From Gemmata obscuriglobus (GTDB lineage: Bacteria; Planctomycetota; Planctomycetia; Gemmatales; Gemmataceae), in contig NZ_CP042911.1 of assembly GCF_008065095.1 (NCBI RefSeq), positions 3,000,001 through 3,032,000 on the forward strand: a stretch of DNA of 32,000 bases, given 5' to 3'. The notes beneath the pieces were generated by a model, which made no database searches, was not told where the DNA came from, and worked only from the letters and a program-made list of their open reading frames with translations. This document shows positions 6,015 to 24,595 of this stretch, one piece after another (positions within the stretch are counted from its first letter, which is position 1; each line of letters starts with the position of its first letter). The position numbers and the translations under genes are program-made.

Positions 6015-7010
6015 TCACAGCCCTACCTTTGCTGCGACATTCTGCCTGAACAACGATCCGTCGCGAATGTACCTTCTCATGACCAGCAGCGACTTGTGTC
6101 CCGACTGGTCTTGGATATCGCGGTCGCTCGCCCCCGCTATGGCGGCCTGCGTGATGAGCCCTGCGCGAAGCGAGTGTGCGGCGTAACCCCGCGCGGTATG
6201 TCCCGCTGCGACCAAGCTGCGTTTGACGACCTCAGCCACCGTGCGGTCGGAGAGCCGCGTACCCATGACGTGCCCGTGCTTGTTTACAGAGCGAAAGAGG
6301 GGACCCTCGAGAATTGCTGCCTGATCGACCCACGCGAGCACCGCGCGCACCGGGCAGGTACCCTCGTGCTCACCGTACGGTATCCCGAGCGTCCGACCTT
6401 CCTGCACTTGGTCCGTTTTGCTCTTTCGGATCGTGACGACGAGCCCCTCGTCCGTGAGGGCCACATCAGTCGCGTCGATCCCGACAAGCTCGCTGCGCCG
6501 CATGGCGCCAGCGAACCCGAGTAGGAGGAGCGCGCGGTCGCGAACACCTAACAACCCTTGAGGCAGGTGCTCGACCATCTCGCGGATGTGCTTCGTGAGG
6601 GTGGGCTTCTTGTGATTTTGAGCAACACCTTTATCGCGCCGGATCCCTGCCCAGACCAACTTGACCTGTGCGGATTTCGTGGGCGAGTCGAAACCCGCCG
6701 TGCGGTGGGCATCGGAGATGGACATCAGGCGGCGTTGTAACGTACTCGTCTTCAATTCCTGGGAGCGGTCGGCCAAATAGTAGGCAACCGTGTCTGGCGC
6801 GGCCGGAAGCGGGGAGCGAGCGTACTTGGCGCACCAAGAGGAGAAATCCTTCCAATCCGAGCGTTGCGCGCGGCGAGTGTTCGGGGCTCTGGACTTCTCA
6901 ACGTACCTGTCGGCCTCACTGCCGATGTCTTCGAACCGCTCGGCGTGGTGTTTCGCCTCTTTCGGAGAAGAGGTTCGGGAGGCTTGCAAATTGGCTCGTT
7001 CGGGCGACAT
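6015..7010 (-). CDS. Tyrosine site-specific recombinase (Cre/XerD-like)
   Basis: N-terminal SAM-like core-binding region (TRRAQRSDWKDFSSWCAKY..PAAPDTVAYYLAD). Catalytic region with AMRRSEL (R), HSLRAG (HxxR) and GHKSLLVMRRYIR (H..Y). The start is ATG 7010 or GTG 7037. Confidence 0.85.
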   Translation of the reverse strand: MSPERANLQASRTSSPKEAKHHAERFEDIGSEADRYVEKSRAPNTRRAQRSDWKDFSSWCAKYARSPLPAAPDTVAYYLADRSQELKTSTLQRRLMSISDAHRTAGFDSPTKSAQVKLVWAGIRRDKGVAQNHKKPTLTKHIREMVEHLPQGLLGVRDRALLLLGFAGAMRRSELVGIDATDVALTDEGLVVTIRKSKTDQVQEGRTLGIPYGEHEGTCPVRAVLAWVDQAAILEGPLFRSVNKHGHVMGTRLSDRTVAEVVKRSLVAAGHTARGYAAHSLRAGLITQAAIAGASDRDIQDQSGHKSLLVMRRYIRDGSLFRQNVAAKVGL

Positions 7011-7183
7011 GGCGGGTGTAAACGTGAGCGTCAGCACTCAGTATCGCTCACAGCGGACCGGTTGCGAAACCCGAAATCGTTGCCGTCGCTGTCGCACAAC
7101 GGCTTAATGCGTTCTGGCTCAAGCAGCGCCGAGCCGCGAGCAAGGAAGGCTGGAACCAGGAGGTAACCGTTCACGTAGCTTGA

Positions 7184-7720: not shown

Positions 7721-7764
7721 TTCCGTTCGACTCGAGCTGGCACTTTTCCGGCCGTGTCAGTTCC

Positions 7765-8029
7765 TCAGGTCGAGGTGCGTGCAGGGATGATCGAGGGTGC
7801 CACCCCTCCGGTCCTGGCGGTCTGCATGGCCTCGGCCAGGAAGGCCAACACATCGCGGCCTTGTTGCCGGCAGGTCGCCACCACGGTCAGCATTCACTCG
7901 ACGAACCGGCTTCCACCGGCCGAGTCCGTCCCGAAACTCATCTTCCGCCAACATACGGCGTGCCGCAATGCCCGCTCGGCCGCATTGTTCGTCGGCTCGA
8001 CCCCTTCGACGGCAGCGAACGTGTACAGG
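7765..8029 (-). pseudogene. 3' fragment of a single-ORF IS66-family (ISBst12-like) transposase gene, with an additional in-frame TGA
   Basis: The minus-strand translation is LYTFAAVEGVEPTNNAAERALRHAVCWRKMSFGTDSAGGSRFVE*MLTVVATCRQQGRDVLAFLAEAMQTAR...ST*. This is the conserved IS66-family C-terminus. The internal TGA at 7894-7896 sits where homologues would have an Arg-type codon. The fragment continues the 5' half found at 18566-19676. The left IS end lies somewhere in 7721-7764 and is not resolved. Confidence 0.8.
8022..8029. repeat. Target-site duplication, left copy (TGTACAGG)
   Basis: Identical 8-mer at 18566-18573, directly abutting the opposite terminal inverted repeat. Confidence 0.85.
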
Positions 8030-8060
8030 GTACGCGCTCGGCGAATCACGTGCTTGACGG
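8030..8060. repeat. IRL of the IS66-type element
   Basis: GTACGCGCTCGGCGAATCACGTGCTTGACGG. Its reverse-complement partner is at 18535-18565. Confidence 0.8.
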
Positions 8061-8099
8061 GTAAGTTATGTTGGCGGCATCCGTTCCCTTCTTCGGAGG

Positions 8100-8450
8100 A
8101 TGCCCGTGTCCGACTCGTCCGCCCGGCCCCGCTACCACCCGGCCGCCGCCCGCCGCTGGGCCGACCGCCTCGAGCGCTACGCCGCCCGCCCCACGACGGT
8201 CGCCGCCTTCTGCGCCGCCGAGGGCGTGTCACCGTCCAACTTCTACCTGTGGCGGCGGAGGCTCACCGGGGCTGGTCTCGAACCGGCCGACGGCCCGGCC
8301 GTCGTGCCCATGCACGTCGCACCACCTCCTGCGCCCGCCGCCCCGATCGAGCTGGCCCTGCCGTCCGGCACGGTCGTTCGGCTCCCCGCCGACGCCGGCC
8401 CGGAACTGGTCGTGGCCATCCTGCGCGGGCTGGAGGGGCGGCCGTGCTGA
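8100..8450 (+). CDS. tnpA: IS66 Orf1 (TnpA, HTH protein)
   Basis: FCAAEGVSPSNFYLWRRRL motif. Its stop overlaps the tnpB GTG. Confidence 0.8.
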   Translation: MPVSDSSARPRYHPAAARRWADRLERYAARPTTVAAFCAAEGVSPSNFYLWRRRLTGAGLEPADGPAVVPMHVAPPPAPAAPIELALPSGTVVRLPADAGPELVVAILRGLEGRPC

Positions 8451-8806
8451 CCCTGCCCGCCACCACCAAGCTCTGGTTCGCGGCCGCCGTGGATTTGCGG
8501 CTCGGGTACGACGGGCTGGCCAACCTGGTCCGCACCCAGCTGTCCGGCGATCCGCTGAGCGGCCACCTGTTCGTGTTCACGAATCGGTCCGCGAACCGGG
8601 TCAAGGTGCTGTACTGGGGCGGCCACGGGCTGTGCCTCTGGTGCCAGCGGTTGGAGGCCGGGCGGTACCACTTCCCTGAAGCCACCGCCACCGGGATCGA
8701 ACTGACGGCGGCTCAGTTCGCCATGATCCTGGACGGCATCGACCTGTCCCGCGTCCGCCGGTTCAAGCGGTTCTCCGCCGCCCCGCCGCCACCTCGCGCT
8801 ACCTGA
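8444..8806 (+). CDS. tnpB: IS66 Orf2 (TnpB)
   Basis: GTG start. The sequence (M)LTLPATTKLWFAAAVDLRLGYDGLANLVRTQLSGDPLSGHLFVFTNRSANRVKVLYWGGHGLCLWCQRLEAGRYHFP is the conserved IS66 Orf2 pattern. Confidence 0.85.
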   Translation: MLTLPATTKLWFAAAVDLRLGYDGLANLVRTQLSGDPLSGHLFVFTNRSANRVKVLYWGGHGLCLWCQRLEAGRYHFPEATATGIELTAAQFAMILDGIDLSRVRRFKRFSAAPPPPRAT

Positions 8807-8831
8807 CGGCGGCCGCGGGGTTGAAGGGGGC

Positions 8832-10396
8832 ATGGACGCCACCACGCTCGCCCCCGATGCGCCGCTGCCGGACGACGTGCCCACGCTCCAGGCGATGGTT
8901 CGTGAGTTGCTCACCGAACTCCAGAAGCTCCGGGCCGAGAACGCCGAACTGAAGACCAAACTCGACGCCGCCCTGAAGCACCGGTTCGGCCGCCGGAGCG
9001 AACGCCGGACGCCACCGCCGGTGCCCGCCGCCCAGAAGCCACCCCGACGCGATGAGCACGGTCGCTCGCCCTTGCCCGAGCACCTCGAACGGCGGGAGGT
9101 CGTCCACGACCTGACCGCGGCCGAGAAGCTCTGCCCGTGCTGCGGCCGGCCCCGCGCGTGCATCGGAGAGTAGACGGCCGAGCAACTCGATCTCGAACCG
9201 GCCACGTTCTTCGTCCTCCGCACGGTCAAGAAGAGCTACGCCTGCCGCCACTGCGACCCGGCGGCGGTGCCGGCCGAGCAGCGCATCACGACCGCCGGTC
9301 CGGCCCAGGTCGGCCCGATCGCCAAGGGGTTGTGCGGTCCGGGGCTGCTGACCCACGCCGTCACCGCCAAGTTCGCCGACCACACGCCGGTCCATCGACT
9401 CGCCGGCCAACTGGGCCGGTCCGGGTGACGATCGCGACCTCGACGCTGGGCGACTGGCTGTTCCGGGCGTCTGAGTTGCTGACCCCGCTGTACGAGTTGA
9501 TGCACGCGCGAGTGCTCCGGTCGCGGGTGATTCATGGGGACGACACGGGCGTGAAGTTGCGGGTGCCGGGGAGCCATCGCACGGCCAAGGCGTACATCGG
9601 GGACGCCGACCACCCGTACGTCCTGTTTGACTTCACGACCGACTACACGGCCGACGGGCCGAAGCAGTTCCTCGCGGGCTACAAGGGCTACTTGCAGGCG
9701 GACGCACTGGCCCAGTACGAGGGGTTGTACGGCGAGCGCAAGGTCCAGCACGTGTGCTGCGTCGCGCACGCCCGCCGCAAGTTCGTGGCCGCACACGACA
9801 CTGGTGACGAGCGGGCGGCCCAGGCTTTGGGGTTGTTCGGCCGGTTGTACGCGATCGAGCGGGCGCTGCCACCGCTGCTGCCGCCGTCGGACGACCCGGC
9901 AGTTCGGGAACTTCGACGGCATCGCGAAGAGCAACGCCGGGCGCTGCGGGGGCGTGACGCCGAACCGGTGTGGGATGAACTGTCGAAGTGGCTGACCGAG
10001 CAGAAGCCGGGTGCGCTGCCGAAGTCGCCGCTGGGAACCGCGATCGGGTACGCCACGAACAACTGGGGGGCGTTGAAGCGATACCTCGAACAAGGCTTCC
10101 TGGCGCTGGACAACAACCTCAGCGAGAGAACGCTCCGGGCAATCGCACTCGGACGGAACAACTGGGGCGTGTTTGGCAGTGCGGGAGGCGGGCGGACGGC
10201 GGCGGTGCTGTTCTCGGTCATCGGCACGTGCAAGCATCTGGGGCTCGATCCGTTCGCGTACCTGCGGGAGGCGCTGCCGGGGGTGTTCGCGCCAGGCGAG
10301 AATCAGACGACCGAACGACTAATGGACGGGCTACCGGACCGATGGCTGTTGAATCGAACACGGGACCAAACCGCCCCGGATGCGGCCACCCGGTAA
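8832..10396 (+). pseudogene. tnpC: IS66 transposase (TnpC) disrupted by an in-frame TAG and a 1-nt deletion
   Basis: The leucine-zipper N-terminus and CPCCG zinc motif are followed by TAG at 9171-9173 (..ACIGE*TAEQLDLEP..). The frame is then lost at the G-run 9423-9425 (..LGRSG* / VTIATSTLGDW continues in the next frame). The downstream part keeps the DDE-region motifs (HGDDTGVKL, LQADALAQY, LALDNNLSERTLR). Confidence 0.85.
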
Positions 10397-11917: not shown

Positions 11918-13150
11918 TCACTCCGCGTTCGCGTAGTACAGTGGGCGGGTGCGGTTCTTGCGCTCGTCGCGGAATCCGAACAGCTTCAGCCCGTGGTACC
12001 GCCCCTCGAGGTCGAACAGAGGCCCGTACACCAGCTCGCCGCCCTCCTTGCGCGCGACCTGCCCGTTCGAGTGCATCGGCAGCAGGTACGGGCGGGCGTA
12101 AGAGTTCGACGGGGCCAGCGCCAGTCGCGGCTCACCGGGCTTGGCGTGCACCGAAGCGCGGATGTACAGATCGGTGCCGACGGCCTCGCGCACGACCCGT
12201 TCGACCAGCCCGAGGTCGCGCACGGCGTGGTTGTTCGCGGTGTACCCGACCGAGAGGTCGGCCGCCAGGAACCACAGGTCCTCGGCGTCCTTCGCCGCGA
12301 TGCTGCCGACTTGGTGCCCGCCGACGGCCCCGAACACCTGGACGGTGTGCTCGTAGGACCAGCCGCGGGCGCGGAGGTTGACGCTCGACACCAGGCTGTC
12401 CGCCTGAGACGCCAGCTGAGCCCGGAAGTCTTCGTTGCTGTTCGCCTGCTCGCGCACGTTGACGATCTCGTCGATAACGAACTCAAACCACCGGTCGTCG
12501 AGCACGTTGCGCGGAGACGCCAGCACGACGTCGAGCGCGCCGAGGAACGCCCGCGCGTCGTCTTGCAGGGTCTCCAGGAACAGGTCGGCCTGGCGGGCGT
12601 CCAACCCCGCGTCCGCCGAGTGCAGGTGCCCGTCAGCGACGAGCACGAGCCGGGTCGGCACGTCGGTCACCTCGGTCAGAGCGTCGGCGACCCCCTGGAG
12701 CACGTTGACGGACGTCCAGTCTGCGAGGTCGGGGGTGAGCGTACGGCCCGTCTTCAGCTCGTTCCCGATCTTGACGCCGCCGGTGATCATGGCCACGGTG
12801 AACTGCTTGTGGCTCAGCATCCCGTTGATCTTGTCGAGCAACCCGGTGCGGACGCCCAGATCGTCGAACAGGGTCGCTTTCACGCTCAGCGACGCGGCCT
12901 TGAGGACGGCCAGGGCGTTCTCCGCCGGGCTCAGGTCGGGCTTGCACTTTTTCAGGAGTTCGTCCTTCCAGTGCTCGCGCCCCTGGCGCAGTTCCAGGGT
13001 GAGGGACTGCAGGGCGTCCGGGGTCAGGACCGTCATCGGCGGCGGCGGGAAGGTGCGCCCTGCCTCGATCTGTTTGCACGCCTCCGGGAGGATGGACAGC
13101 TTGTCGAGGCGGGAGGCGTCGGACAGGGCGGACCGGAAGGGCTGGGCCAT
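11918..13150 (-). CDS. Hypothetical enzyme, tentatively DIT1/PvcA-like (isonitrile synthase family)
   Basis: Soluble 410-aa ORF. TPDLADW...PTRLVLVADGHLHSADAGLD and ...LYIRASVHAKPGEPRLALAP....LLPMHSNGQV resemble the PvcA patterns (pDlgEe..., ivSDGrvF.d, iRLSIH...K..i.l...tPWH). The call rests on recalled motifs only. Confidence 0.35.
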   Translation of the reverse strand: MAQPFRSALSDASRLDKLSILPEACKQIEAGRTFPPPPMTVLTPDALQSLTLELRQGREHWKDELLKKCKPDLSPAENALAVLKAASLSVKATLFDDLGVRTGLLDKINGMLSHKQFTVAMITGGVKIGNELKTGRTLTPDLADWTSVNVLQGVADALTEVTDVPTRLVLVADGHLHSADAGLDARQADLFLETLQDDARAFLGALDVVLASPRNVLDDRWFEFVIDEIVNVREQANSNEDFRAQLASQADSLVSSVNLRARGWSYEHTVQVFGAVGGHQVGSIAAKDAEDLWFLAADLSVGYTANNHAVRDLGLVERVVREAVGTDLYIRASVHAKPGEPRLALAPSNSYARPYLLPMHSNGQVARKEGGELVYGPLFDLEGRYHGLKLFGFRDERKNRTRPLYYANAE

Positions 13151-13503: not shown

Positions 13504-14247
13504 GTGGCTGACTCCACCGGCCCGAACCAGGTGCCGATTAACGACGCCGTTAACGCGGGGCCTGACCCGCCTGTTCCGCTCGAATCGCCCCTCCCGCCGG
13601 GCTGGACCGACCAGCCGTGCGGTTGCTCGCGCCGGTGGCACTACGCCGACGAGGAGTACCGGTGCTTCGTTTACACGCGGTACACGATCTGCTCCCCGGC
13701 GTGTACCTGCGTCCTGACCACTGAAGTGGCGCGGGGCCAAGCAACGGCGCGCCGTCTGGGCCAACAAAGCGCAGACTGCGATGCCAGCGCAGCGCTGCAC
13801 GCCTGGAAAGTCCACCTCCTCTTCACCAACCGGAACTTCGACGAGCAGCAGGGAGATGATCAATTCAGCCGGTACCTCGCTCAGATTGCCTGGAACAGTG
13901 CGCGCGAGTGGTACCGCGGCTTCTACCACACTGACACCTTGATCGGTCCGATTTTGCCGGTCTCCTTCGTCAACCCCGACGACGGCTTGGCCGCCGGCGC
14001 CGTGCCGGAACCGGCCGACCAGGACGAGCCACAACGCCAGACCGACGAGCGCATCTGGATCGAAGAGCTCGCGGAACTGATCCCGAACGAATGGGATCGC
14101 AACGTCTTCCTCGCGCGCCACAGGGACGGCCTCTCGGCCGCGGAAATCGCGCAGCAAGCGGGCTGCGCCCCGTACGCCGTTTATCAGTCGCTGTGGGGCA
14201 GTTATGCGATTCTGCACGCCCGCCTTCTTGACCAGTGCGACGGCTAA
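13504..14247 (+). CDS. Atypical ECF-like sigma-70 family protein with Cys-rich N-terminal extension
   Basis: GTG at 13504 is preceded by GAAGGAGAA. Region-2-like FSRYLAQIAWNSAREWYR. Region-4-like DRNVFLARHRDGLSAAEIAQQAGCAPYAVYQSLWGSYAILHARL. The N-terminal part contains CGCSRRWHYADEEYRCFVYTRYTICSPACTC. Confidence 0.55.
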   Translation: MADSTGPNQVPINDAVNAGPDPPVPLESPLPPGWTDQPCGCSRRWHYADEEYRCFVYTRYTICSPACTCVLTTEVARGQATARRLGQQSADCDASAALHAWKVHLLFTNRNFDEQQGDDQFSRYLAQIAWNSAREWYRGFYHTDTLIGPILPVSFVNPDDGLAAGAVPEPADQDEPQRQTDERIWIEELAELIPNEWDRNVFLARHRDGLSAAEIAQQAGCAPYAVYQSLWGSYAILHARLLDQCDG

Positions 14248-14353
14248 ACGCCAGCAAACCACCGGGCGACAGAATTCTGTCGCCCGAGTTCCCGCAGCGC
14301 GGGAGTAACAAGGTTGAAGTGACCTTGTCATCCTCGCAACAAGGAGTCATTCC

Positions 14354-15058
14354 GTGAACGACAACGAGCTGGATAGCAACGGCCGGGACTCGCCGAGCGA
14401 GCCAAAATACGAACCCAGGAACATTTCGCCCCTGCGGTACCTGTCCGTCCTCACGGGCGAATCGGAGTGGACGCCGGAGGAGCAGGACGCGATCGAACAA
14501 GACCCCGTTCTTCGGCAGAGGATCACTCGCCTGATGCTGGCGATGTACGCCCCTCTTCTGGGTCCCAAACCGACACCGCCCGATGCGAAGCCAAAGGGCC
14601 CCGTCGCCTGGCGCGAACCCAAAAAGTTCAAAGACGCTCCGTGTGAGGATGAGGTCGTGGCGGCCGGCCTCGGAGCCCACGCCGGTGCCGCGGCCGCGCC
14701 GAAAGAGGAGTTCACTTCCGCGTCTCGCGTGTGGACGGGAAAGCCGGCGTGGTCGAATCGCCCGTCCGATTGGCCTGAAGAACTGTCGGTGGTTTACGAA
14801 GTTCTTGACGGCGACCTGGAAGTCACCATCAAGGGGCTCGAGGACGTGAGCACGGCGCGTTACCAAGCGGTACTGGTCGCGGTCGGGAATCCCGCCATTC
14901 CCATCGATTCCTGGTTTCGGACGTCGAAGTTCAAGGCGCGTACGCTGCAACTCGACCAATCATCGAGAGCGGGCGCACAACAGCTGTACGTTTTTCTCGC
15001 CGAACGGCGGGGGAAGAAGACCGAGCTCGTCGCCCAGCCGATTCCCATTCGGCTCTGA
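14354..15058 (+). CDS. Hypothetical protein (no TM helix, Pro/Lys-rich linker)
   Basis: GTG start 7 nt after AAGGAG (14341-14346). Same strand as, and directly downstream of, the sigma-like gene. No recognisable domain. Confidence 0.55.
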   Translation: MNDNELDSNGRDSPSEPKYEPRNISPLRYLSVLTGESEWTPEEQDAIEQDPVLRQRITRLMLAMYAPLLGPKPTPPDAKPKGPVAWREPKKFKDAPCEDEVVAAGLGAHAGAAAAPKEEFTSASRVWTGKPAWSNRPSDWPEELSVVYEVLDGDLEVTIKGLEDVSTARYQAVLVAVGNPAIPIDSWFRTSKFKARTLQLDQSSRAGAQQLYVFLAERRGKKTELVAQPIPIRL

Positions 15059-15091
15059 TGTCGCCCGTGGCCAACAACTGGAGGAGAACTC

Positions 15092-15748
15092 ATGAACGTG
15101 CTCTCTCGCCTCGTGCTCGCGGTCGTCGCTGCGCTCTGGCTGCCTTTGGCCGCTCTGGCCGATGGAACCCAGCCGATGGCCGTCCAGGCCGGCTCCTGGA
15201 CGGTGGGCGAGAACGGCGTCAACGTCGACGCGGCGTGCTTGAAGAAGAAGTTGAAGGAGCCCACCGCCGGTACCTCGCTCAGCCTGCACGAGGGCAAGGT
15301 AGTCGTCGAGGTCCACGATGGCACCAAGTGGGTCGAGCACTCTACCCTCGCGGACGCTGTGACGAACGGTCACCTCGTGATCGAGGGAATCACGCAGGGC
15401 CGCCATCCCGACACGGGGGAAACCATCGGCCGGTTCGACGCGATCAAGATCAGGCCCGGTACTAAGCCGCTCGACGGGAATGTGCGGGTCACCTTCCGCG
15501 AACCGACGGTTTTCGGGGCCGAGGGCACGAAGGTCGCGGATTTCAAGGAAGCCGCCGGCTTGGTCGGTGACATCCAGCAGTACGCCAAGACCTTTGGCCT
15601 GCAGCCCAACGAGGCGCGGTTCATCGCCCAGCACGCCTACTGGGCTTTGGACCGGCAAGGCAAGGCGACTAAGGACGAGGTGGCGAAGCTGACGAAGATG
15701 AGCGAGGAAGAGTTCACCAAGTGGCTGATTAAGAACATGAAACCTTAA
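15092..15748 (+). CDS. Hypothetical secreted protein
   Basis: Signal-peptide-like N-terminus MNVLSRLVLAVVAALWLPLAALA/DG. It starts 33 nt after the preceding gene. Confidence 0.6.
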   Translation: MNVLSRLVLAVVAALWLPLAALADGTQPMAVQAGSWTVGENGVNVDAACLKKKLKEPTAGTSLSLHEGKVVVEVHDGTKWVEHSTLADAVTNGHLVIEGITQGRHPDTGETIGRFDAIKIRPGTKPLDGNVRVTFREPTVFGAEGTKVADFKEAAGLVGDIQQYAKTFGLQPNEARFIAQHAYWALDRQGKATKDEVAKLTKMSEEEFTKWLIKNMKP

Positions 15749-15792
15749 CGGTTGCGTCAGCGACTCCGTCAAGTGCGAATAAAATCTACGTC

Positions 15793-15825
15793 GCCGGGGT
15801 TCGAGGACCATCCTCGAGCCCCGGC
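15793..15825 (+). terminator. Strong GC hairpin (14-bp stem, 5-nt loop) between the secreted-protein gene and the CHAT gene; possible terminator or attenuator
   Basis: GCCGGGGTTCGAGG-accat-CCTCGAGCCCCGGC with a single G.U pair. There is no clear U-tract after it. Confidence 0.35.
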
Positions 15826-15894
15826 TTGCGACTTGAAAGCCTTTCAACTTGCTGTTCCTGGGCAGGTGCCTAGGTGCCTGGAGCCGGCTCAAAG

Positions 15895-18507
15895 ATGAAC
15901 TCGCACACCGACTCGCCGAACCAATCGGGTGAGAGTCACGAGGAAACCGACCAGTCGGCGCCTGACGAGGTCAGTACTCCGCCGTTTACTTTGCAACTTC
16001 GGCTCGCGCGGCAGGCACTCGCGAACAATAATCCAGAGGCCGCGCTCTGTTTCCTCTATCCGGTGTTTGGCCTCAAACCTCACTCGTTTCACCTCCGGCG
16101 TCCGTTCCTCCCGTCCCCATCCAACTTCTCGTCGAAGATCACGGAGGTTGTGCCGGAAGCCAGCGCACTTTTGTTGGTGGCGGCAGCGCAGACCGGCCAG
16201 ATTCGTGATGCCCTTGCGGTCGCGATGGCGGCAAACGGGCTGGTGCAGACCGTCAACGGCAACCACAAGGTCTTTTCGAGTGCGAGTGACTGGCTCGAGG
16301 TTTTGGAGAAAGTAAGCGACCTTAACCTGCAACGGGGAACCGCGGCTCGGCTTGCTCGCTGGGCGCGAGAAGGGGTTCGCGTTCTTCGCGAACTTAGCGG
16401 GGCTGAATTGATTGAGGACGTCGTCGGTCGGGACACTTTGAACGAGTGGTTCGAACAACCGCATCTCTTGATCGATCAACCTGCCAACGCCGAGGCACTC
16501 GCCGAATACTTGGCGGGCGAGCCGGTAACAGACCGGGAGATCGCCACGCTCGACATCGACGCCTTCATGCACGCGATTGAGCATCGTGATGGCTCTATCC
16601 CCGAAGGTGCGGTCGCCATCGCAATTGGACTGGCTCACGGCCTCAAAGCCCGCTCGTCTGAGGCACAGATTCCGGCGTTCATCAAGGGCGTGTTCGGCAA
16701 GGCCGTTACCGGCTCTTTCCTCGCGGAGCTCGAACGTCGGCGCGTTCAACCGGAACGCGCCGTGGAACTCGCGCTCTTCGCCCTCGAACACGACCAGGGG
16801 CTGACCGACGCGGGCCGGGCCGAGTTAACCGGGCGAGTGGTCGAACGTCTGGCCCAGCTTCCGCCGACTGCCCGCAAGTACCGCGAGCGGTTGCTCGGCC
16901 AGGCCGTTGAGTGGGCGCTCACGAACCAGGCCAGCGGGCATAGTCGGGAGAACTGGCCTGTGGTCGTGCTGTGCTTGGACCGCTTCCCCGGACCGCCCGC
17001 GCCGCGCGAGGCGTCCCCCGTCGTTGAGCTCGAGCGGGGTTCGGCTCCTATTACCGGACCAACGGACGAGGTCGGGGCGGACGTCTTGGCGGCTGGCGAA
17101 TCGGACGGGGCGCCCGGCCTGACGGTTTCGGCGGCCGGGGAAGAGGAACCGAGGGCCGTGGGCGCCTTTTCGTACGACGAGCTGAGCTCGGCCGCCCTGG
17201 AAGCTGAGCGTGCGGACGAGACGCTTCCGCGCCGCGGTGCGCTCGAGAACACGCCCCGGCTGCCAGGCGATGGCCACCGCACTCTGGGCGAAGTGGTTGA
17301 CCAAAGTGACCCTCGCCTCGCCTCGCTGCTCGGCCGCTATCCCGGTGACCCGGAGCGACCCGTCGTCTTGCTCGGTTTTCAGCCCGTCGGCCAACGCCTG
17401 CTCGTCTACACCGTCGAAGCGTCGGAAGGGAACCCACTTCGCTGGCGAGCGCGAGCTCTTGATGGCGCCGTGGACACGATCCAACGCGCCGTCGAAACCT
17501 TCGACGGCTCAATCGCGCGGGCCTGGCAGGATCATAAGCGCGCCGAGGTGCCCGACCGGAGCCGCGCGCTGGCCGACTCACTGCTCCACGAACTCGGCGC
17601 GCATCTCGCCGAGGTTGATGACCTGCTCAGCGCGGCGGTGTCCGACCTGTTGGCCGCCCACGATCCCGAGCCCAACATCCTGCTCACCGCCGCCGGCGCG
17701 GCCCAAGCCCTCCCGCTTGATTTGTTGACCGTCCGGTTGGCCGGCGGTTCGGAGCGGCCGCTCGTGCACTGCGGGAGCACCGTTCGTTGGACACCGGGGC
17801 TGGTGCTTCAGGAGCGAATGGACACCACCGGCAGGCGGTCGGGTGAGGGGACCGGCCGCTCGCTGGGGTGGCTCGCGTACCTGCCCGAACACGACCCAAA
17901 CGGTCGGTTCGGCGGCTTCTTCAGAGAGAAGGAGGTCGAGAGCGAAAAGGATCGCTGGTCGCCCGGGGCGAAGTTCCTCCAGCGAACGAAGGGCCGTGGG
18001 TGCCAAGGGACGCAGGCGACCGCAGGGAATCTGCGGTCGTATTCGGCTGGTCAGTTCAGCGACCTTCTCGTGTTGGCCCACGGCTGCTGGGACCGAGGCG
18101 CGGTCGTGCTTTGGGATGAGTTGGTGGATTCCCTTGGGGCGGCCCAGTTGGACACGTTGTTCCTGGTCTCGTGCACGATAGGCCGACTCGGGTGGTCAGG
18201 TGCTGACGAGCCGATCAGTCACAGCTTGTTGTCCAACATTCTCGAGCAGGGGTCGGTCTCGCACCTGCTAGCCTTCCGCCACACGATTCCCGATACACCG
18301 GCGGTAAAGTTCGCTCTCCGAGTGCGCGAAGATACGGGTCGCGATCTGGCGCTCGCGCGGAGCGAGTTGTTAAAGTCTTGGTTCCCAAATGGGAGCGCGG
18401 CAACGAATGTTTGCCACCAACACCAAGTGAACACAGGTGATGCGTTCGAACGTTTCGTTGGTGCGGTCTCGATTGCGTACTCGGCAAAACTGGAACCGGT
18501 CCGGTGA
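15895..18507 (+). CDS. Large CHAT-domain (caspase-like) protease with ~560-aa helical N-terminal region
   Basis: The C-terminal ~300 aa show the CHAT pattern: ILLTAAGAAQALPLDLL, the His in LLVLAHGCW (codon 18079-18081) and the Cys in LFLVSCTIG (codon 18172-18174), then GSVSHLLAFRHTIPD. ATG at 15895, with an alternative GTG at 15874. Confidence 0.75.
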   Translation: MNSHTDSPNQSGESHEETDQSAPDEVSTPPFTLQLRLARQALANNNPEAALCFLYPVFGLKPHSFHLRRPFLPSPSNFSSKITEVVPEASALLLVAAAQTGQIRDALAVAMAANGLVQTVNGNHKVFSSASDWLEVLEKVSDLNLQRGTAARLARWAREGVRVLRELSGAELIEDVVGRDTLNEWFEQPHLLIDQPANAEALAEYLAGEPVTDREIATLDIDAFMHAIEHRDGSIPEGAVAIAIGLAHGLKARSSEAQIPAFIKGVFGKAVTGSFLAELERRRVQPERAVELALFALEHDQGLTDAGRAELTGRVVERLAQLPPTARKYRERLLGQAVEWALTNQASGHSRENWPVVVLCLDRFPGPPAPREASPVVELERGSAPITGPTDEVGADVLAAGESDGAPGLTVSAAGEEEPRAVGAFSYDELSSAALEAERADETLPRRGALENTPRLPGDGHRTLGEVVDQSDPRLASLLGRYPGDPERPVVLLGFQPVGQRLLVYTVEASEGNPLRWRARALDGAVDTIQRAVETFDGSIARAWQDHKRAEVPDRSRALADSLLHELGAHLAEVDDLLSAAVSDLLAAHDPEPNILLTAAGAAQALPLDLLTVRLAGGSERPLVHCGSTVRWTPGLVLQERMDTTGRRSGEGTGRSLGWLAYLPEHDPNGRFGGFFREKEVESEKDRWSPGAKFLQRTKGRGCQGTQATAGNLRSYSAGQFSDLLVLAHGCWDRGAVVLWDELVDSLGAAQLDTLFLVSCTIGRLGWSGADEPISHSLLSNILEQGSVSHLLAFRHTIPDTPAVKFALRVREDTGRDLALARSELLKSWFPNGSAATNVCHQHQVNTGDAFERFVGAVSIAYSAKLEPVR

Positions 18508-18534
18508 GGCCCATTCGCTGGTGAAGGTACCCGC

Positions 18535-18565
18535 CCGTCGAGGGTGTGATTCACCGGGCGCGTAC
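18535..18565. repeat. Distal IRR of the IS66-type transposition unit
   Basis: CCGTCGAGGGTGTGATTCACCGGGCGCGTAC. Its reverse complement matches IRL at 25 of 31 positions. It is followed immediately by the TSD copy. Confidence 0.8.
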
Positions 18566-18573
18566 TGTACAGG
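18566..18573. repeat. Target-site duplication, right copy (TGTACAGG)
   Basis: Identical to 8022-8029. Confidence 0.85.
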
Positions 18574-19676
18574 GCCGGTTCGACGGCCATCAACTCGCGG
18601 CACACGCCCGCCGTGATCGCGCACGCGCCTTCAGCCCCTCGCTTGAGGAAGCCCCGCACCCCGGCCCGGAGCCACCCGAGGTAGGTCTGTCGGAACCCGC
18701 GCCGCGTCAGCGTCCCGTCCCGCACCCGCTTCCACTGGTCGAGCAGGATGTCGGCGTAGGTCAACAGGTCCTCGCCGACCCCCGACCCGCCGTTCCCCCG
18801 GTCGATCATGGCCTGGAAGTCTCGTCGGAGGTGCGCCCAGCAGACTTGGCGCTCGCACACAGGGAGGTGGTCGTAGGCCGAGTATCGGTCCGTGGTCAGC
18901 ACTCCGGGATGGCCCGCGATCAACTCGCCCAGCACCTTCCGGGCACGGGACAGGCGGACCAGGAACACGGTCACGCGGGCGGTCACCGCGGCCCACAGCC
19001 AGCCCCGCTTGCGCCCCTCCGGCCACCCGGTCTCGTCCACGTTCGCGGGCTTCCCAACGACGTAGGCACGGGCCTCCTCAACGACCGGCCCCAAGGCGAC
19101 CGCGGCCTTCCGCTGGAGGCCGCATACGGCGGCCGGGCTGATCGGTACCCCGGACAGGTCCTGGCACAGCCGCGCGACGCCCCGCTTGCCGATCCGGTAC
19201 GCCCCGCTGAGGAGCGCGCACACCGCCTGGACCCGCGGCCCGTACCCGCCTCGGGCATCACCCGGTAGGGGCGGGCGGTTGATACGCCCGCAGTTCGGGC
19301 ACGCGAGCCGGTGCCGACGATATTCGGTCACCTGCGGGCAAACCGGCGGTAACTCGATGATCTGGTGGCGGAGCGGTTGCGCATCACCCCCGGAGAGCGC
19401 GTGTGCGCACCGGTCACAGGTGCTCGGCCGCAACTCGATGACGTTGTCCGCGGGCAGGTCGGAACGGGAGTGCTTAGGGTGCCCCGGCTGGCCGCCCTTG
19501 CGCCTGCTGGATGGGGCCTTCGGCGGGGCGGCCTTGACGTGCGGCGGGTCGGACGACGGGGGCTTTGAGGAGTTCGTCGAGTTCTGCCCGAGCCGGGCTT
19601 CGAGGTAACGGATGTATGCCTGCACCGCCGGGGGAAGCGCGTCGAAGACCTCAGGTGGTAGCGTTGGAGATGCCAT
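18566..19676 (-). pseudogene. 5' fragment of the same single-ORF IS66-family (ISBst12-like) transposase gene
   Basis: MASPTLPPEVFDALPPAVQAYIRYLEARL..NSSKPPSSDPP..RRKGGQPGHPKH..CDRCAHAL..ACPNCGR..ANVDETGW..LTTDRYSAY..VCWAHLRRDF..CRELMAVEPALY, where homology stops at the insertion point. The rest of the 498-aa track ORF is read-through into the IRR and the antisense strand of the CHAT gene. The right IS end is approximately 19700-19730 and is not resolved. Confidence 0.8.
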
Positions 19677-19750
19677 GCCGCAGAAGGAATACGGAGCAAG
19701 ACTCACAGCGGCCACAACCGTGAACGCCTACACCAGGAGATAAATAGCTG

Positions 19751-20074: not shown

Positions 20075-21475
20075 CTAGCGGATTACCCTGGCCACCGCAT
20101 CCAGTGCCTCTTCTGGTACGAAGAGACGATCCGTCTCTGGCAAGGGCTGGGAAAGTGTTCTGAAGCTGTCATCGTCCCGAATAGGGGCCGCCCCTCCTGA
20201 GTCATCTACAAAATAACCCCATTCGCTCGGCGCCTTCGATAACAATGAAAACTTCGGGTGGTCCCGGACGAGATAAGATTCTGGCTCCTTGAAGCCACTA
20301 TCGATAAGCGCCTTGTTGATCTTCGGATACGCCTCGGGTGATTTCAGAAAACTACTAATCTGTTCAGAAGATCGCGGAACAGATTTGAATAAGGTGCGGG
20401 TTCGTATCCTCTTGGCGAGATCGACCACGATGGGATCCGCTCCATCAGCCTGAGCCACAATTTCGACAAGCACGTGCAAGGCGAAGTCATCAGCGGACAA
20501 CAGGGCTTGAAGTGTCACCACTTTGCCGGCGACCATGTCCATCAAAGGCCCAACGATTCGGTCGCGAGAGAAAGCCGCGAATTGTCCGTCGCGCACGACG
20601 GTTTTTAAGCGGCGCAGAAAGAGCGCCACCATCCCCTCCGCCGCCCTGACGGTGCGGTGGTAGTACACGGCTTCGTACATGGCACGTCGTGCCACCAAAA
20701 AATGCTCGACCACGCGTCTCGATTTGGCCCGATCGAATCCCACGACAAGTGTCTTTTCGTTTGTTGTCCCCAGTGCGCACGTCGAGATCAACCGACTGAG
20801 GTCATATCCCCCAAACGTAACGCCGCACTGCTGGCTGTCACGGCGAAGGAAATCGCTGCGGTCGACGTCGATATCGCTATCCAGTAGTCGCGGCAGGTAG
20901 GGCAGGTGATACTCGCCAAGCAAAAATGCACCGATCCGTTCAGCCATCCCGCGCTCGTAAGATTCGAGCATTTGGTGCAGTTCGCCCTCGGGCCAAGCGA
21001 GCAGAGCCTGTCCCACGAGAACGTGCCACTTCAGCCTGCGCCCTCCCACGGCGCCTGCTGCGGCTGGAAGCCCGAGCCCCTGTCTCCAATTACCCTCGTC
21101 GTAGTCCTCACCAATGATCTCGCGCTCCCATGCGTGCGAGAGGGGCCCGTGCCCGAGGTCGTGAAACAGCGCCGCGAGTGCGAAGTCCCTGATCGCCACC
21201 TCGTCGGGGAGCAGAAACGGTGTGATCGAGTCGCGCCCTACTTCTTGAATGTGCCTGCCAAAGAGTACCGCGAGGTAGGCAGCGCCGATTGAATGAACGA
21301 GTCGAGAGTGCTCGCCGCCGGGGAACACTAGATGCACAAGCCCGAGCTGGCGGATGTGGCGGAGCCTCTGAATTTCGCGGGTACGAAGCACCTCCACGAT
21401 GAGCGTCTCCATGCCCCTAAATTCCATGAGGCCGTGGACACTGTCTTGGATACGCCTTACACGACTCGACCGCAT
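20075..21475 (-). CDS. SAMHD1-like HD-domain phosphohydrolase (dNTP triphosphohydrolase-like, COG1078 type)
   Basis: IQDSVHGLMEF...REIQRLRHIRQLGL..FPGGEHSRLVHSIGAAYLA...ALFHDLGHGPLSH...LDSDIDVDRSDFLRRDSQQCGV. The H..HD..D metal ligands are all present. Confidence 0.8.
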   Translation of the reverse strand: MRSSRVRRIQDSVHGLMEFRGMETLIVEVLRTREIQRLRHIRQLGLVHLVFPGGEHSRLVHSIGAAYLAVLFGRHIQEVGRDSITPFLLPDEVAIRDFALAALFHDLGHGPLSHAWEREIIGEDYDEGNWRQGLGLPAAAGAVGGRRLKWHVLVGQALLAWPEGELHQMLESYERGMAERIGAFLLGEYHLPYLPRLLDSDIDVDRSDFLRRDSQQCGVTFGGYDLSRLISTCALGTTNEKTLVVGFDRAKSRRVVEHFLVARRAMYEAVYYHRTVRAAEGMVALFLRRLKTVVRDGQFAAFSRDRIVGPLMDMVAGKVVTLQALLSADDFALHVLVEIVAQADGADPIVVDLAKRIRTRTLFKSVPRSSEQISSFLKSPEAYPKINKALIDSGFKEPESYLVRDHPKFSLLSKAPSEWGYFVDDSGGAAPIRDDDSFRTLSQPLPETDRLFVPEEALDAVARVIR

Positions 21476-21478
21476 AGC

Positions 21479-22807
21479 TCACCCCAGCAATTCAATAAGC
21501 GCATCGATCTCGGATTCTCTGCCTCGGGCCGCCCTAGAGAATGTCCGTAACTGCCTTAGCCGTTCTCTGAGGCGCTGCTTACTCGCCGCCGGCATTCTGA
21601 GCACTGCGTTGGTGCGCGGCAGGTGCTGCAAGAGCTGTTCGAGTTCCGTCTCGATCGCCACGCTCCCGCTACCGATCCCGGACAAAAAGGCGCCCAACTT
21701 CTGACCACACAGATGAACGAGTTCCTTCGCGGTCGCTCGCCTTTCTGGAGCGGCTACCAGCGCCCGCGCCAAGACCGCCCGAAGAGGGTCTGGCACCGAG
21801 TCCAGCCTGACGCGTTGCTCCCACTGGGTGCGCATCCGGTCTCGGATTTTTCCCTCGAATGCTTTTCTCTCAGCGGGGGTCGATGTGCGTGGAACTCTCT
21901 CATTGTCGTCGATGAAGAGAAAACTCCCAGTCACCGCCTTGTACACCGTTGCCCCTAGCGCCCAGACATCGAACTTTCTGGGCTCTGAGGGGTAGGGGCC
22001 GTCTTCAAAAAGTTCCGGCGCGCGCGTGCGAAGACTGCCGGTGACCGACAGTTCGTGTGTGAAATCGCAGGACGTGCGGCAGATGCCGAAATCAAGCAGA
22101 ATGTACGAACCGTCCTTCTGCCCGATGTTGTCCGGCTTGATGTCCCCGTGAACGAGTGCCAGTTCGCCGTGCAGGTACGCTATGGCCTGGGCGATGTCGT
22201 ACAAAAGGTTCGCGGCCTCGTGGGTGCCATTGGCACGCCAGGCGTCATTGAGGGCGAAGGGTAGCTTTTCTTCAACGAGAAACTTGTCGCCTTTGACGTT
22301 CTGCAGCGGATGTGTGGCGATGATGTTCGGGTGGCGCATCGCGAGCGGGTGCGACTGAAGTTCTCGGTCTAGAATGAGCTCCTGCTGGGTGCGGTTCCCG
22401 AGTAACCGTTTGAGTACAACTTCGCGCTGCGCCTGCTTCCACTTCGCGTGGTAGACCCTCTTTTGGCTCCCCGTTCGAGACATCGCGGAGATAATCGTGA
22501 ACCCTTCGGGTGGAATGAGGTTGATGCAATCAATGACGGCATCAGGATCGTTTTGGTGCGCGCGGATGAATTTAACAATAAAATTACAATCAATCGGAGA
22601 CTGAGGACCGTTGCTGAGCTGCTCAATGAGTTTGCTCAAAAGGCTCGCTGCATTCTCATCCGTCCAGGGATGATCGAGAGCGGTAGCCATCGCCGCCCAA
22701 TCTTCATCTGACAGTTTTGCGAGAGGATGAAACGTATCGTCAATCCTCGCACTCTCGTCGAGAAGCGATTCGAGTACTGATTTGGTTTTTTCCCCCAGGC
22801 CAGCCAT
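21479..22807 (-). CDS. Ser/Thr protein kinase with ~100-aa unknown N-terminal region and helical C-terminal tail
   Basis: EVVLKRL (Lys), LVHGDIKPDN (catalytic loop), LLDFGICR (DFG), LRTRAPELF (APE). There is no classical Gly-rich loop. I chose ATG 22807 because the 150-aa upstream extension of the track ORF runs into the IS. The stop is 3 nt from the HD gene ATG. Confidence 0.8.
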   Translation of the reverse strand: MAGLGEKTKSVLESLLDESARIDDTFHPLAKLSDEDWAAMATALDHPWTDENAASLLSKLIEQLSNGPQSPIDCNFIVKFIRAHQNDPDAVIDCINLIPPEGFTIISAMSRTGSQKRVYHAKWKQAQREVVLKRLLGNRTQQELILDRELQSHPLAMRHPNIIATHPLQNVKGDKFLVEEKLPFALNDAWRANGTHEAANLLYDIAQAIAYLHGELALVHGDIKPDNIGQKDGSYILLDFGICRTSCDFTHELSVTGSLRTRAPELFEDGPYPSEPRKFDVWALGATVYKAVTGSFLFIDDNERVPRTSTPAERKAFEGKIRDRMRTQWEQRVRLDSVPDPLRAVLARALVAAPERRATAKELVHLCGQKLGAFLSGIGSGSVAIETELEQLLQHLPRTNAVLRMPAASKQRLRERLRQLRTFSRAARGRESEIDALIELLG

Positions 22808-22853
22808 TTTATGCTGCCCTGTGGTGAAGCTGCTACGTTGGTTGCTGCCAGTC

Positions 22854-22862
22854 GTCACGAGA
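22854..22862. repeat. Target-site duplication, left copy (GTCACGAGA)
   Basis: Identical 9-mer at 24596-24604, each abutting a terminal IR. Confidence 0.85.
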
Positions 22863-24595
22863 GAGGTCACGCCACGGTTTGCAGTAGGCCTTGCGGTCCT
22901 CGGGGCACGGGATAGGAAAAGCGCGGGGCGATTTCGCCGCAACTCTCGTGCGGGGCGAGTCATGAGCACACCGCGTTTCACGGCCGAGGAACTCGACCGC
23001 CTTCGAGCACTGGCGGCGGAGTGGGGCAAAATCGTTTCCAAGCGGGCGTTCGGGGACGACGGGCCGGGATTGGACGTGGACTTCCGGACGATGGAGCAGA
23101 TCGCCACCGCGGCGGCACAAGGGCTCACCGAAGGTGCCCTCCAGCAGATGCTCCACCAGCAGGCCCGGAAGGTGCCCGAACAGGTTCCGTGTCCGGTGTG
23201 TGGCGAGCCGTGCCCGACCCGACCACACACCCGCACCCTGGCGGCCCAAGGGGCCACGGTTCAACAGGCCGAACGGATCGCCCATTGTCCCGCCTGCCGG
23301 CGGGACTTTTTCCCCCCTGCGGCTGGCCCTCGGGCTGGATGAGCACGGGTACAGTTCCTCGGTCGTTCAACGCATCGTCACGGCCGCCGCCCGGTTCTCC
23401 TCGTTCCGGGATGCCGCCGAGGCGGTGCGGATGACCGGGGTCACGATCAGCGACAACCAGGTGCGCCGACTGGCTCACGAGGTCGGGCACGAGTTGATCG
23501 CGCGGCGCGATCGGAAGGCGGTCGAGCACCGGCGCCGCCAGTTAGAGCCGCGGACCGCGGTGGTGCCCGTGGCCGTGGTGGTCGAGGTCGATGGGGGGCG
23601 CATCCGCACCCGCGCCGCGGGCGCCGGCCCGGGTGTTCACGAGGCCCAGAACAAGGAGGACAAGGTGGCGTGCCTGGCCACCCTGAGTGGCCCCACGTTC
23701 GCCACGGACCCGTGCCCCGAGCCGCCCGAGTCGTTCCGCTGCCCGCGCCGGGTGCGGCGCCTGGTGCAGCAGATGAAGGGCCCGGCGGGCGAGGTCGCGC
23801 CCCCGGAAACCGTGGACGAATCGACGCCCCCGGTGCCGGCCGGGGAACCCGAAGGGGCCGAGCGGTGGTCCCCGACGCGGTTGGTGCGGACGTGCGTGGC
23901 GAGCCTGGAGGGGAGTACCGCGTTCGGCCCGATGATGGCCGCCGAGGCCCAGGAGCGGCGCTTCTATGAGGCCCCGCGTCGGGCGTTCGTAGCCGACGGT
24001 CAGGCGTACAACTGGACCATCTGGCGCGGGTACTTTGGTGCGTTCGAGCCGATCGTGGATTTCCTGCACGCGGTGTGTTACGTGTTCTCGTCGGCCGCGG
24101 CCGTGAGCCCCGATGAGGCGTCGGGTTGGTCCCAATACGTGGCCTGGATGCGCGCGTGCTGGCAGGGTCGCGTTGGAGAAGTGCTCACCGAACTGGATCA
24201 GTGGCAGGCGCGGCTGGGTGAGCCCCCACCGGGTGAGGCGGCGACGGCCGAGGAGCGCCGGGACCCGCGCCGGGTGGTGGCGCACGCGCGGACCTACTTG
24301 GGGAACAATCGGGATCGCATGGCGTACCCGCGATACCGGCGCAACGGGCTACCGACGACGAGTAGCTTGGTCGAGTCACTGGTGGGCGAGATCAACGCCC
24401 GGGTGAAGAGCACACAGAAGCATTGGACCCGGCCCGACGGTGCCGAATCGATCCTGCAACTGCGGGCCGCCGTGCTGAGCCAAGACGACCGGCTCCCACG
24501 GTTCTTCGCCGAACGGCCGGGCTCCTCGTTCCGCAAACGAGATACACTCTGCCACAAATCAGAGGGTGCCACAGCACAAACCGTGGCGTGACCTC
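22863..24595 (+). mobile_element. ISKra4-like insertion sequence (1733 bp)
   Basis: Perfect 19-bp terminal IRs: GAGGTCACGCCACGGTTTG at 22863-22881 and its reverse complement at 24577-24595. A 9-bp TSD flanks them. There is a single transposase gene whose stop codon lies inside the IRR. Confidence 0.85.
22962..24591 (+). pseudogene. ISKra4-family transposase, frameshifted in a T5C6 homopolymer tract
   Basis: N-terminal part: ..CPVCGEPC..HCPACRRDFFPP. The protein continues in the +1 frame as LRLALGLDEHGYS.., and one fewer C at 23312-17 would fuse the two parts. Downstream motifs: VVEVDGGRIRTR, FVADGQAYNWTIW, IVDFLHAVCYV, YLGNNRDRMAYPRYRRNGLPTTSSLVESLVGEINARVK. Confidence 0.75.

Follow-up and report, generated by a model that had tools for sequence, protein, structure and literature searches.

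A CRISPR-less gene module of Gemmata obscuriglobus encoding a CHAT-like protease candidate and a sigma-like protein

Four co-directional genes in a 32,000-nt stretch of the Gemmata obscuriglobus chromosome (the window; coordinates are window positions unless another locus is named) encode a 247-aa sigma-like protein and three proteins of 234, 218, and 870 aa (p234, p218, and p870), the last of which is a candidate CHAT/separase-type cysteine protease whose His/Cys dyad follows an extended N-terminal part made up of helices. The order of the last three genes, preceded by an open reading frame (ORF) resembling extracytoplasmic function (ECF) sigma factors, recurs in a second planctomycete locus. 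The 32-kb window holds no CRISPR-like repeat array, no Cas7-11 or cas-like ORF, no Rfam match, and no tRNA; the initial annotation of this DNA had likewise reported neither Cas7-11 nor a CRISPR array. Our preferred reading, to which we give a probability of about 0.4, is that the cluster is a CRISPR-less CHAT protease and sigma-like module that would function by a protease-gated sigma switch. What appears to be new here is a CRISPR-less, predicted cytoplasmic helical-repeat-CHAT module with a divergent sigma-like partner.

The four ORFs lie on the + strand, where the initial annotation had placed them (Table 1), and public G. obscuriglobus annotations hold the same four genes, GobsT_25740 to GobsT_25770; the p870 product is identical to that of GobsT_25770 (CP025958.1, about 4.99-5.01 Mb). 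The longest ORF for p870 opens at an alternative GTG at 15874 and would give 877 aa. A Shine-Dalgarno-like sequence precedes each gene, and the sigma-like gene has a GTG start with AAGGAG 8 nt upstream. Across the four ORFs, the G+C content is 0.74-0.85 at third codon positions (GC3) compared with 0.42-0.49 at second positions (GC2), as expected of real genes in a GC-rich genome.

Searches of Pfam, NCBIfam, PADLOC, and PHROGs returned no match to p870, and its assignment draws on predicted structure and on conservation among homologues. A template-free AlphaFold2 model of the last 402 aa, built from a four-sequence alignment, had a predicted local distance difference test (pLDDT) score of 61.9. 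In a Foldseek comparison of this model with the PDB, matches 1 to 18 were Csx29, separases, and three ciliary central-pair chains (E = 1.9e-7 to 5e-4, probability 0.96-1.0). The Csx29 chains were 8eex_B (1.9e-7), 7zoq_A, 8d9f_A, and 7y9x_B; the separases, which come from human, Chaetomium, C. elegans, and yeast, were 9hn0_B, 5fc2_B, 5mz6, and 5u1t; and the ciliary chains were 7n6g_1N, 7sqc_R1, and 7sqc_R0. The full-length model (pLDDT 50.7), whose N-terminal 290 aa were predicted from a single sequence and are unreliable, matched Csx29 first and then DdvA (8rw5, E = 0.02) and TPR proteins, the TPR matches corresponding, at low confidence, to the all-helical N-terminal third of p870. The long helical N-terminal region described in the initial annotation is also predicted in the model, and it is conserved in the second locus and partly in the homologue P0002.

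Homologues of p870 are few: out of some 15 billion proteins, about 5 belong to the family. When 1.84e9 representatives were searched exhaustively with phmmer, three relatives only came up, namely P0002 (644 aa, 39% identity over residues 393-841), P0003 (a fragment), and P0004 (214 aa, E = 8e-4), all on contigs of at most 2.4 kb without usable context. One further relative emerged when 185,579 species genomes were scanned with a degenerate pattern; it lies in a planctomycete metagenome-assembled genome (CAVVXK010000002.1; locus L004). A word-indexed homology search with p870 returned p870 itself only, and a profile search returned P0004 only. The same kind of word-indexed search with concatenated p234 and p218 recovered neither of these two, both of which the collection contains, so its empty result says nothing about their distribution. 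No relatives were found in a genome scan with the concatenated sigma-like protein, p234, and p218, a collection in which the source locus is apparently masked. The module is very rare and planctomycete-restricted. An origin of the cluster on a phage or plasmid was considered and set aside, as tblastn of plasmids with the sigma-like protein, p234, and p218 and scans of viral contigs with p870 and p218 profiles found nothing.

In the C-terminal model, His729-Gly closes one predicted β-strand and Cys760 the next, 31 residues farther on, which would be the caspase-hemoglobinase arrangement. These two residues lie in the LAHG and VSC motifs that the initial annotation had picked out, and conservation of the dyad had been set beforehand as a test. 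The His is kept in all 4 sequences that cover it, as A/V-H-G (P0001, P0002, P0004, and L004), and the Cys in 5 of 5, as V-S-C (P0001, P0002, P0004, L004, and L006 in an extended reading frame). Such strict conservation argues for real protease activity of p870. Given the caspase-hemoglobinase/separase-type fold of the model and the conserved strand-end His and Cys, we consider it very probable that p870 is CHAT-like by fold, even though its sequence gives no PF12770 profile match. The C-terminus of p870 aligned to the very end of its homologues, which indicates that the gene is intact. With no 19-residue Kyte-Doolittle average above 1.6 and no signal peptide, p870 is predicted to be cytoplasmic.

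Synteny outside the window was the second test fixed in advance, and the L004 locus supplied it, bringing the number of known contexts to two. There, homologues of p234, p218, and p870 follow one another as they do in the window, separated by 39 and 34 bp, and a weak ECF-like ORF stands immediately upstream. This ORF matched the ECF models NF009165 (E = 2.4e-4), TIGR02989 (4e-3), and TIGR02937 (0.03) and has an EDLVQE motif that looks like a canonical region 2.2. Four different frames make up the protease gene in L004. At the first frame change, the contig of the metagenome-assembled genome (MFD04540.bin.1.38) lacks one G of a GG run that is complete in L005, an independent peat metagenome contig of 1,042 bp with 99.6% identity to L004 (L004 7946 versus L005 1021). 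The extra G of L005 restores the frame, so that the first L004 frameshift is an assembly error. The other frame changes in the L004 locus may be assembly errors too, and judging from these alignments the p870 homologue there is probably intact.

The 247-aa product opens with a Cys-rich extension; a segment resembling sigma-2.2-2.4 of ECF factors and a helix-turn-helix of the sigma-4 type come after it. In RefSeq the protein is listed as a sigma-70 family RNA polymerase sigma factor, and its best profile matches were to NCBIfam TIGR02937 (E = 1e-8; 35 bits, short of the 42.9-bit cutoff; positions 26-155 of the 165 in the model, which take in regions 2 to 4) and TIGR02989, the Rhodopirellula/Verrucomicrobium ECF family (E = 2e-7). 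Pfam Sigma70_r4_2 matched at E = 0.002 with 18 bits, under its cutoff of 25.7; Pfam Sigma70_r2 gave no match in this protein; and alignments of its sigma-4/helix-turn-helix part to ECF/SigF chains of the PDB were nonsignificant (E of at least 0.26). The region 2 and region 4 described in the initial annotation are hence borne out only in part: the profile check proposed for them yielded sub-threshold scores for TIGR02937 and region 4 and nothing for Pfam region 2. On these profile scores, the product is sigma-like and not an established sigma-70 member. Its N-terminal 90 residues show a CGC…C…C…C.C pattern with His and Trp nearby, and 7 Cys fall within residues 39-91 (C39, C41, C54, C63, C67, C69, and C91). 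One could speculate that this extension serves the sigma-like protein as a built-in sensor of metals or of redox state.

Hydropathy scans detected no transmembrane-like segment in the sigma-like protein, p234, or p870; for p234 the maximum Kyte-Doolittle 19-residue value was 0.87, in keeping with its earlier description as a soluble protein. In p234, a low-complexity linker rich in Pro, Lys, and Ala joins a short helical-looking N-terminal part to a C-terminal domain that measures about 100 aa. Conservation is confined to this domain: residues 138-234 share 27% identity with the syntenic counterpart encoded in L004 (pairwise E = 3e-7). We infer only that p234 could be an anti-sigma factor or a protease substrate. 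The N-terminus of p218 is the sole strongly hydrophobic one in the cluster (Kyte-Doolittle 2.15). Over its full length, p218 is 35-38% identical to its homologues in L004 and L005, with a TGETIGR motif conserved. Because the homologue keeps the hydrophobic N-terminus and the …ALA/D motif, p218 is predicted to be exported, to the periplasm or beyond, as the initial annotation had it; a protein with a conserved signal peptide would be a poor substrate for a cytoplasmic protease. Neither p234 nor p218 matched Pfam, NCBIfam, PADLOC (gasdermin models included), PHROGs, or, at E<=10, PDB sequences. A gasdermin-like, anti-sigma, or Csx30-like identity for either protein is unsupported by these sequence-level searches.

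If the preferred reading of a protease-gated sigma switch, drawn by analogy with Csx29-Csx30-CASP-sigma, CalpL-CalpT-CalpS, and DdvA-DdvS, is correct, the helical N-terminal domain of p870 would sense a protein or other ligand, and sensing would switch on the His729/Cys760 site of the CHAT domain. The activated p870 would then cleave p234, which contains a linker, is encoded right after the sigma gene, and would be the best candidate partner. Once p234 is cut, the sigma-like protein would differ in activity, with a resulting change in transcription.

Several results weigh against this reading. At the sequence level, p870, p234, and p218 matched no CHAT, Csx29, Csx30, anti-sigma, or defense model. 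PF12770 found no match in p870, its C-terminal 370 aa, P0002, P0003, or P0004 at E<=10, and PDB sequences gave none to p870 or the family profile in phmmer and hmmsearch comparisons even at E<=10, so that the CHAT claim of the initial annotation held for the dyad and for the fold of a low-confidence model but not for profile or PDB sequence matches. Confidence is low for both structural models, with pLDDT values of 62 and 51 and TM-scores of about 0.3 and 0.16. In the sigma-like protein, the Cys-rich segment (13504-13780) stands where sigma region 2.1/2.2 is expected, and curated ECF (group IV) sigma-70 thresholds are missed, with E values that are still significant. The sigma-like ORFs of the window and of L004 showed no pairwise similarity to each other, and the L004 ORF is frameshifted, with region 4 undetected by profile. 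Synteny statistics are minimal with two genomic contexts (n = 2). The conserved part of p234 is C-terminal, whereas anti-sigma domains are usually N-terminal, and anti-sigma family profiles of Pfam and NCBIfam found no match in p234 or p870. A purely cytoplasmic switch leaves the exported p218 unexplained. Finally, a stable three-hairpin element in the spacer behind the sigma-like gene may uncouple that gene transcriptionally from the downstream trio.

This 106-nt spacer contains three consecutive hairpins, among them a perfect palindrome, CGGGCGACAGAATTCTGTCGCCCG, at 14263-14286, with a 10-bp stem and an AATT loop. The RNA fold of 14248-14353 has a minimum free energy of -42.5 kcal/mol (z = -4.5; 0 of 200 shuffles were as stable). 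The hairpins are not followed by a T-tract, and they are a possible attenuator, terminator, operator, or RNA stabilizer. In the intergenic regions of the window and L004 loci, the ECF-type promoter motif GAAC-N15-18-CGT had no match, and in a scan for consensus promoters and terminators, including terminators on the + strand, nothing exceeded the shuffled background.

Protease-gated sigma switches recur as a way of converting a molecular danger signal into a transcriptional response, as in DegS/RseA, CalpL-CalpT-CalpS, Csx29-Csx30-CASP-sigma, and DdvA-DdvS. The components of type III-E systems act in the cytoplasm. In the CalpL-CalpT-CalpS system, a signal-activated Lon-SAVED protease cuts a small anti-sigma-like partner encoded beside an ECF sigma gene. 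The module described here would have the same logic, in that a protease would cleave an anti-sigma-like partner encoded next to an ECF-like sigma gene; CalpL differs in being a Lon protease and not of caspase fold, in responding to cyclic oligoadenylate via SAVED, and in being CRISPR-associated.

One close parallel is the type III-E signaling arm, in which Csx29 cleaves Csx30 and uncut Csx30 blocks CASP-sigma (PMC10028731, which also cites the CalpL system as its CRISPR-T/Lon example). In both, a helical-repeat and CHAT protease bearing a His/Cys dyad is encoded along with two small proteins and a sigma gene of ECF type or similar to it. Among known structures, Csx29 comes out as the best match to the p870 model, and the type III-E arm also occurs in the phylum Planctomycetes (Ca. 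Scalindua brodae). However, Cas7-11, a CRISPR array, and cas1 are all missing here, and the activator of Craspase, target-RNA binding by Cas7-11, has no counterpart. p870 is about 10% identical to Csx29, with no relationship at the sequence level, and p234 and p218 match no PDB chain by sequence, with Csx30 (8EEY) included in the comparison but not Csx31. Csx30, with its cleavage site at aa 427-429 and an effector domain reaching to aa 545 (PMC10028731), is more than twice the size of p234, and the signal peptide of p218 argues against equivalence to Csx31. The assertion of the initial annotation that the same parts list occurs here is therefore not upheld for Csx30 and Csx31. By these comparisons of models and sequences, the module appears to resemble the type III-E arm in its working without being a member, and its relation to Csx29 would be one of fold.

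A second parallel is DdvA of Myxococcus xanthus, a TPR-CHAT anti-sigma factor proposed to free DdvS by autoproteolysis (PMC11506125). As in the present cluster, an ECF-type sigma is paired with a TPR-CHAT protein and no CRISPR effector complex is involved, and protease-gated release of the sigma factor is proposed for it. DdvA differs in having an N-terminal zinc anti-sigma domain, one transmembrane helix, and a periplasmic CHAT domain (PDB 8RW5), none of which p870 has, and here two extra small-protein genes stand between the sigma and CHAT genes. With CHAT/separase proteases at large (PF12770, clan CD), p870 has in common the predicted fold, the strand-end His-Gly … Cys, and the N-terminal helical repeat; its family is, however, too divergent for detection by PF12770 or PDB sequences, its His-Cys spacing is just 31 residues, and it has about 5 known members. 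As a CHAT-like family invisible to sequence profiles, p870 would mean that Pfam-based annotation misses caspase-fold diversity.

To our knowledge, the trigger of CHAT-type sigma switches is known solely where it comes from a CRISPR effector. Lacking a CRISPR partner, a module of CHAT protease and sigma factor would consequently need its own means of sensing a trigger; such a module could reveal what TPR-CHAT proteases detect natively and would add a compact, programmable protease-to-transcription relay. In a more specific version, which we regard as rather unlikely in all its parts, the cluster would be a free-standing, CRISPR-independent mini-Craspase arm, in which p870 senses its trigger directly with its N-terminal domain, cleaves p234, and switches the Cys-rich ECF-like sigma, with p218 as output or input. 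Were this true, the module would stand for a family of protease-gated transcription switches that has not been described before, and it might be an evolutionary relative or precursor of the type III-E signaling arm in Planctomycetes. The importance of these points is limited by about 5 sequences, two contexts, and functional statements that are all inferred.

The cluster could also be read without a sigma switch. What is conserved at its core is the p234-p218-p870 trio, whose genes lie very close together, and the structured spacer sets the sigma gene apart from it, an arrangement that would suit an abortive-infection-type module in which the CHAT-like protease activates or releases a toxic or membrane-active p234 and/or p218, with the sigma-like gene only driving expression or being just a neighbor. 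A CHAT or caspase-like protease beside small effector proteins is a known defense design, bacterial gasdermin pairs being an example, and the surroundings in G. obscuriglobus resemble a defense island (a prokaryotic Argonaute [pAgo], an HD protein with a kinase, and an integrase). PADLOC and Pfam, however, recognize neither small protein, the L004 flanks are housekeeping genes, the signal peptide takes p218 away from a cytoplasmic protease, and an ECF-like ORF stands upstream in both known loci. We hold this alternative to be somewhat improbable. More generally, the island context offers weak guilt-by-association for a conflict or stress role of the module, which the L004 context does not reinforce.

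The exported p218 bears on a different alternative. Planctomycetes have a great many ECF sigma factors, most of which control genes in their neighborhood, and the conserved signal peptide points to an extracytoplasmic output; the sigma-like protein might then be an ordinary, divergent ECF sigma with p218 in its small regulon, and the CHAT-like protein a scaffold or processing enzyme, unconnected with sigma control, of an envelope or secretion module with no switch. The failure of Pfam and NCBIfam profiles to detect an anti-sigma domain in p234 or p870 would fit this. It is harder to square with the strictly conserved dyad, with the lack in p870 of a signal peptide or transmembrane segment by which to reach exported proteins, and with the joint occurrence of four very rare genes, which suggests a self-contained unit. 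An envelope or secretion module of this kind seems unlikely to us.

Evolutionary debris, that is, orphan ORFs decaying in a plastic island, would account for the extremely narrow distribution, the position among insertion sequence (IS) remnants, and the four frame changes of the L004 copy. Decay sits poorly, though, with the state of the genes: all four window ORFs are intact, with Shine-Dalgarno sequences and coding-type GC3; the order and 27-40% protein identity are kept across two distant genomes; the catalytic residues are conserved; and of the L004 frameshifts, at least the one that L005 repairs arose in assembly. Debris is thus a very unlikely explanation.

The initial annotation had presented the cluster as IS-borne transposon cargo. 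IS66-family genes do flank it on both sides (on the left spanning 7754-10396 on the + strand; Table 1), an integrase lies farther left, and the GC content of the module (0.64) is under that of the adjacent EamA transporter gene and 410-aa gene (0.70), which also lie between the IS66 copies and have GC3 above 0.9. One might add the best match of the p870 model, Csx29, and view the cluster as IS66 composite-transposon cargo and a direct counterpart of the type III-E Csx29/Csx30/Csx31/RpoE arm. Yet the two IS66 copies are unrelated, sharing just a 49-aa patch of 39% identity, and neither common ends nor long direct or inverted repeats were found between them. The right copy is a C-terminally cut remnant that can be aligned to its model as far as position 312 of 387 (about nt 18585). 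From there its frame simply stays open for another 121 codons, antisense to the 3' end of the p870 gene, producing a misleading 498-aa ORF. No IS elements were found near the L004 cluster, whose flanks are housekeeping genes; p234 and p218 have no sequence similarity to Csx30 or any PDB chain; and p218 is secreted. Composite-transposon cargo was therefore rejected, and the combined explanation is largely refuted and extremely improbable.

Table 1. Positions of features in the G. obscuriglobus window and in the L004 locus
Feature	Sequence	Positions	Strand	Details
Sigma-like gene	Window	13504-14247	+	247 aa; GobsT_25740
Three consecutive hairpins	Window	14261-14328	+	Sigma-p234 spacer
p234 gene	Window	14354-15058	+	234 aa; GobsT_25750
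p218 gene	Window	15092-15748	+	218 aa; GobsT_25760
p218 signal-peptide-like segment	Window	15092-15163	+	…PLAALA/DG
p870 gene	Window	15895-18507	+	870 aa; GobsT_25770
p870, all-helical TPR-like N-terminal region	Window	15982-16983	+	About aa 30-363; predicted in p870 model
p870, acidic/Pro/Gly-rich linker	Window	16984-17295	+	About aa 364-467; p870 model, low confidence
p870, CHAT/separase-like caspase-fold module	Window	17296-18504	+	About aa 468-870; predicted in p870 model
His729 codon	Window	18079-18081	+	…LLVLAHGC…; putative catalytic histidine
Cys760 codon	Window	18172-18174	+	…LFLVSCTIG…; putative catalytic cysteine
pAgo class II ORF	Window	86-1390	+	PADLOC E = 2e-186; model positions 309-724 of 724
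pAgo partner ORF	Window	1261-2706	+	Aga helical-REase model E = 1e-90
Tyrosine integrase	Window	6015-7037		
Left IS66 TnpB	Window	7754-8806	+	
Left IS66 transposase	Window	8832-10396	+	
410-aa gene	Window	11918-13150	-	Divergent to sigma-like gene
Right IS66-family transposase remnant	Window	18219-19715	-	Model positions 1-312 of 387
HD-domain protein and Ser/Thr kinase genes	Window	20075-22963	-	Gene pair, 3 nt apart
Weak ECF-like ORF	L004	5229-5954		Immediately upstream of trio
p234-like	L004	6596-6919		E = 9e-6
p218-like	L004	6962-7648		35% identity, E = 9e-26
p870-like	L004	7683-10501		E = 7.5e-47; helical N-terminal domain included, 26% identity over 256 aa
Pair of small, Cys-rich secreted paralogues	L004	10866-11800	+	Directly downstream of module

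The G. obscuriglobus region is a plastic island with defense-type genes. The class II pAgo ORF near the left end of the window is truncated or frameshifted or runs off the window, as its partial model coverage indicates, and the product of the partner ORF beside it has a TIR/SEFIR domain at its C-terminus. On the other side of the cluster, the 466-aa HD-domain protein (HD_assoc_2) is weakly dGTPase-like, and the Ser/Thr protein kinase encoded next to it has the mad6 and PD-T4-6 kinases as its best PADLOC matches; the two are a possible defense pair. PADLOC was negative for the proteins of the cluster itself. Further transposases are present in the island.

The 410-aa gene adjoining the sigma-like gene has a GC3 of 0.93, and its product gave a sub-threshold match (E = 0.002) to DIT1_PvcA, an isocyanide/dityrosine synthesis family; it is not conserved beside the L004 module. 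The flanks of L004 hold genes for radical-SAM/HemN-like, PutA-like, and CCA-adding/poly(A) polymerase proteins and an oxidoreductase. The two Cys-rich paralogues encoded behind the L004 module both end in …QNGTLD.SSVRFTI… and are absent from the G. obscuriglobus locus. Right of the G. obscuriglobus island, at 25.0-28.7 kb, lies an arsenic-resistance-type operon with genes for a MarR/ArsR-like regulator, an S-adenosylmethionine methyltransferase, a low-molecular-weight phosphatase/arsenate reductase, and an ACR3/SBF transporter.

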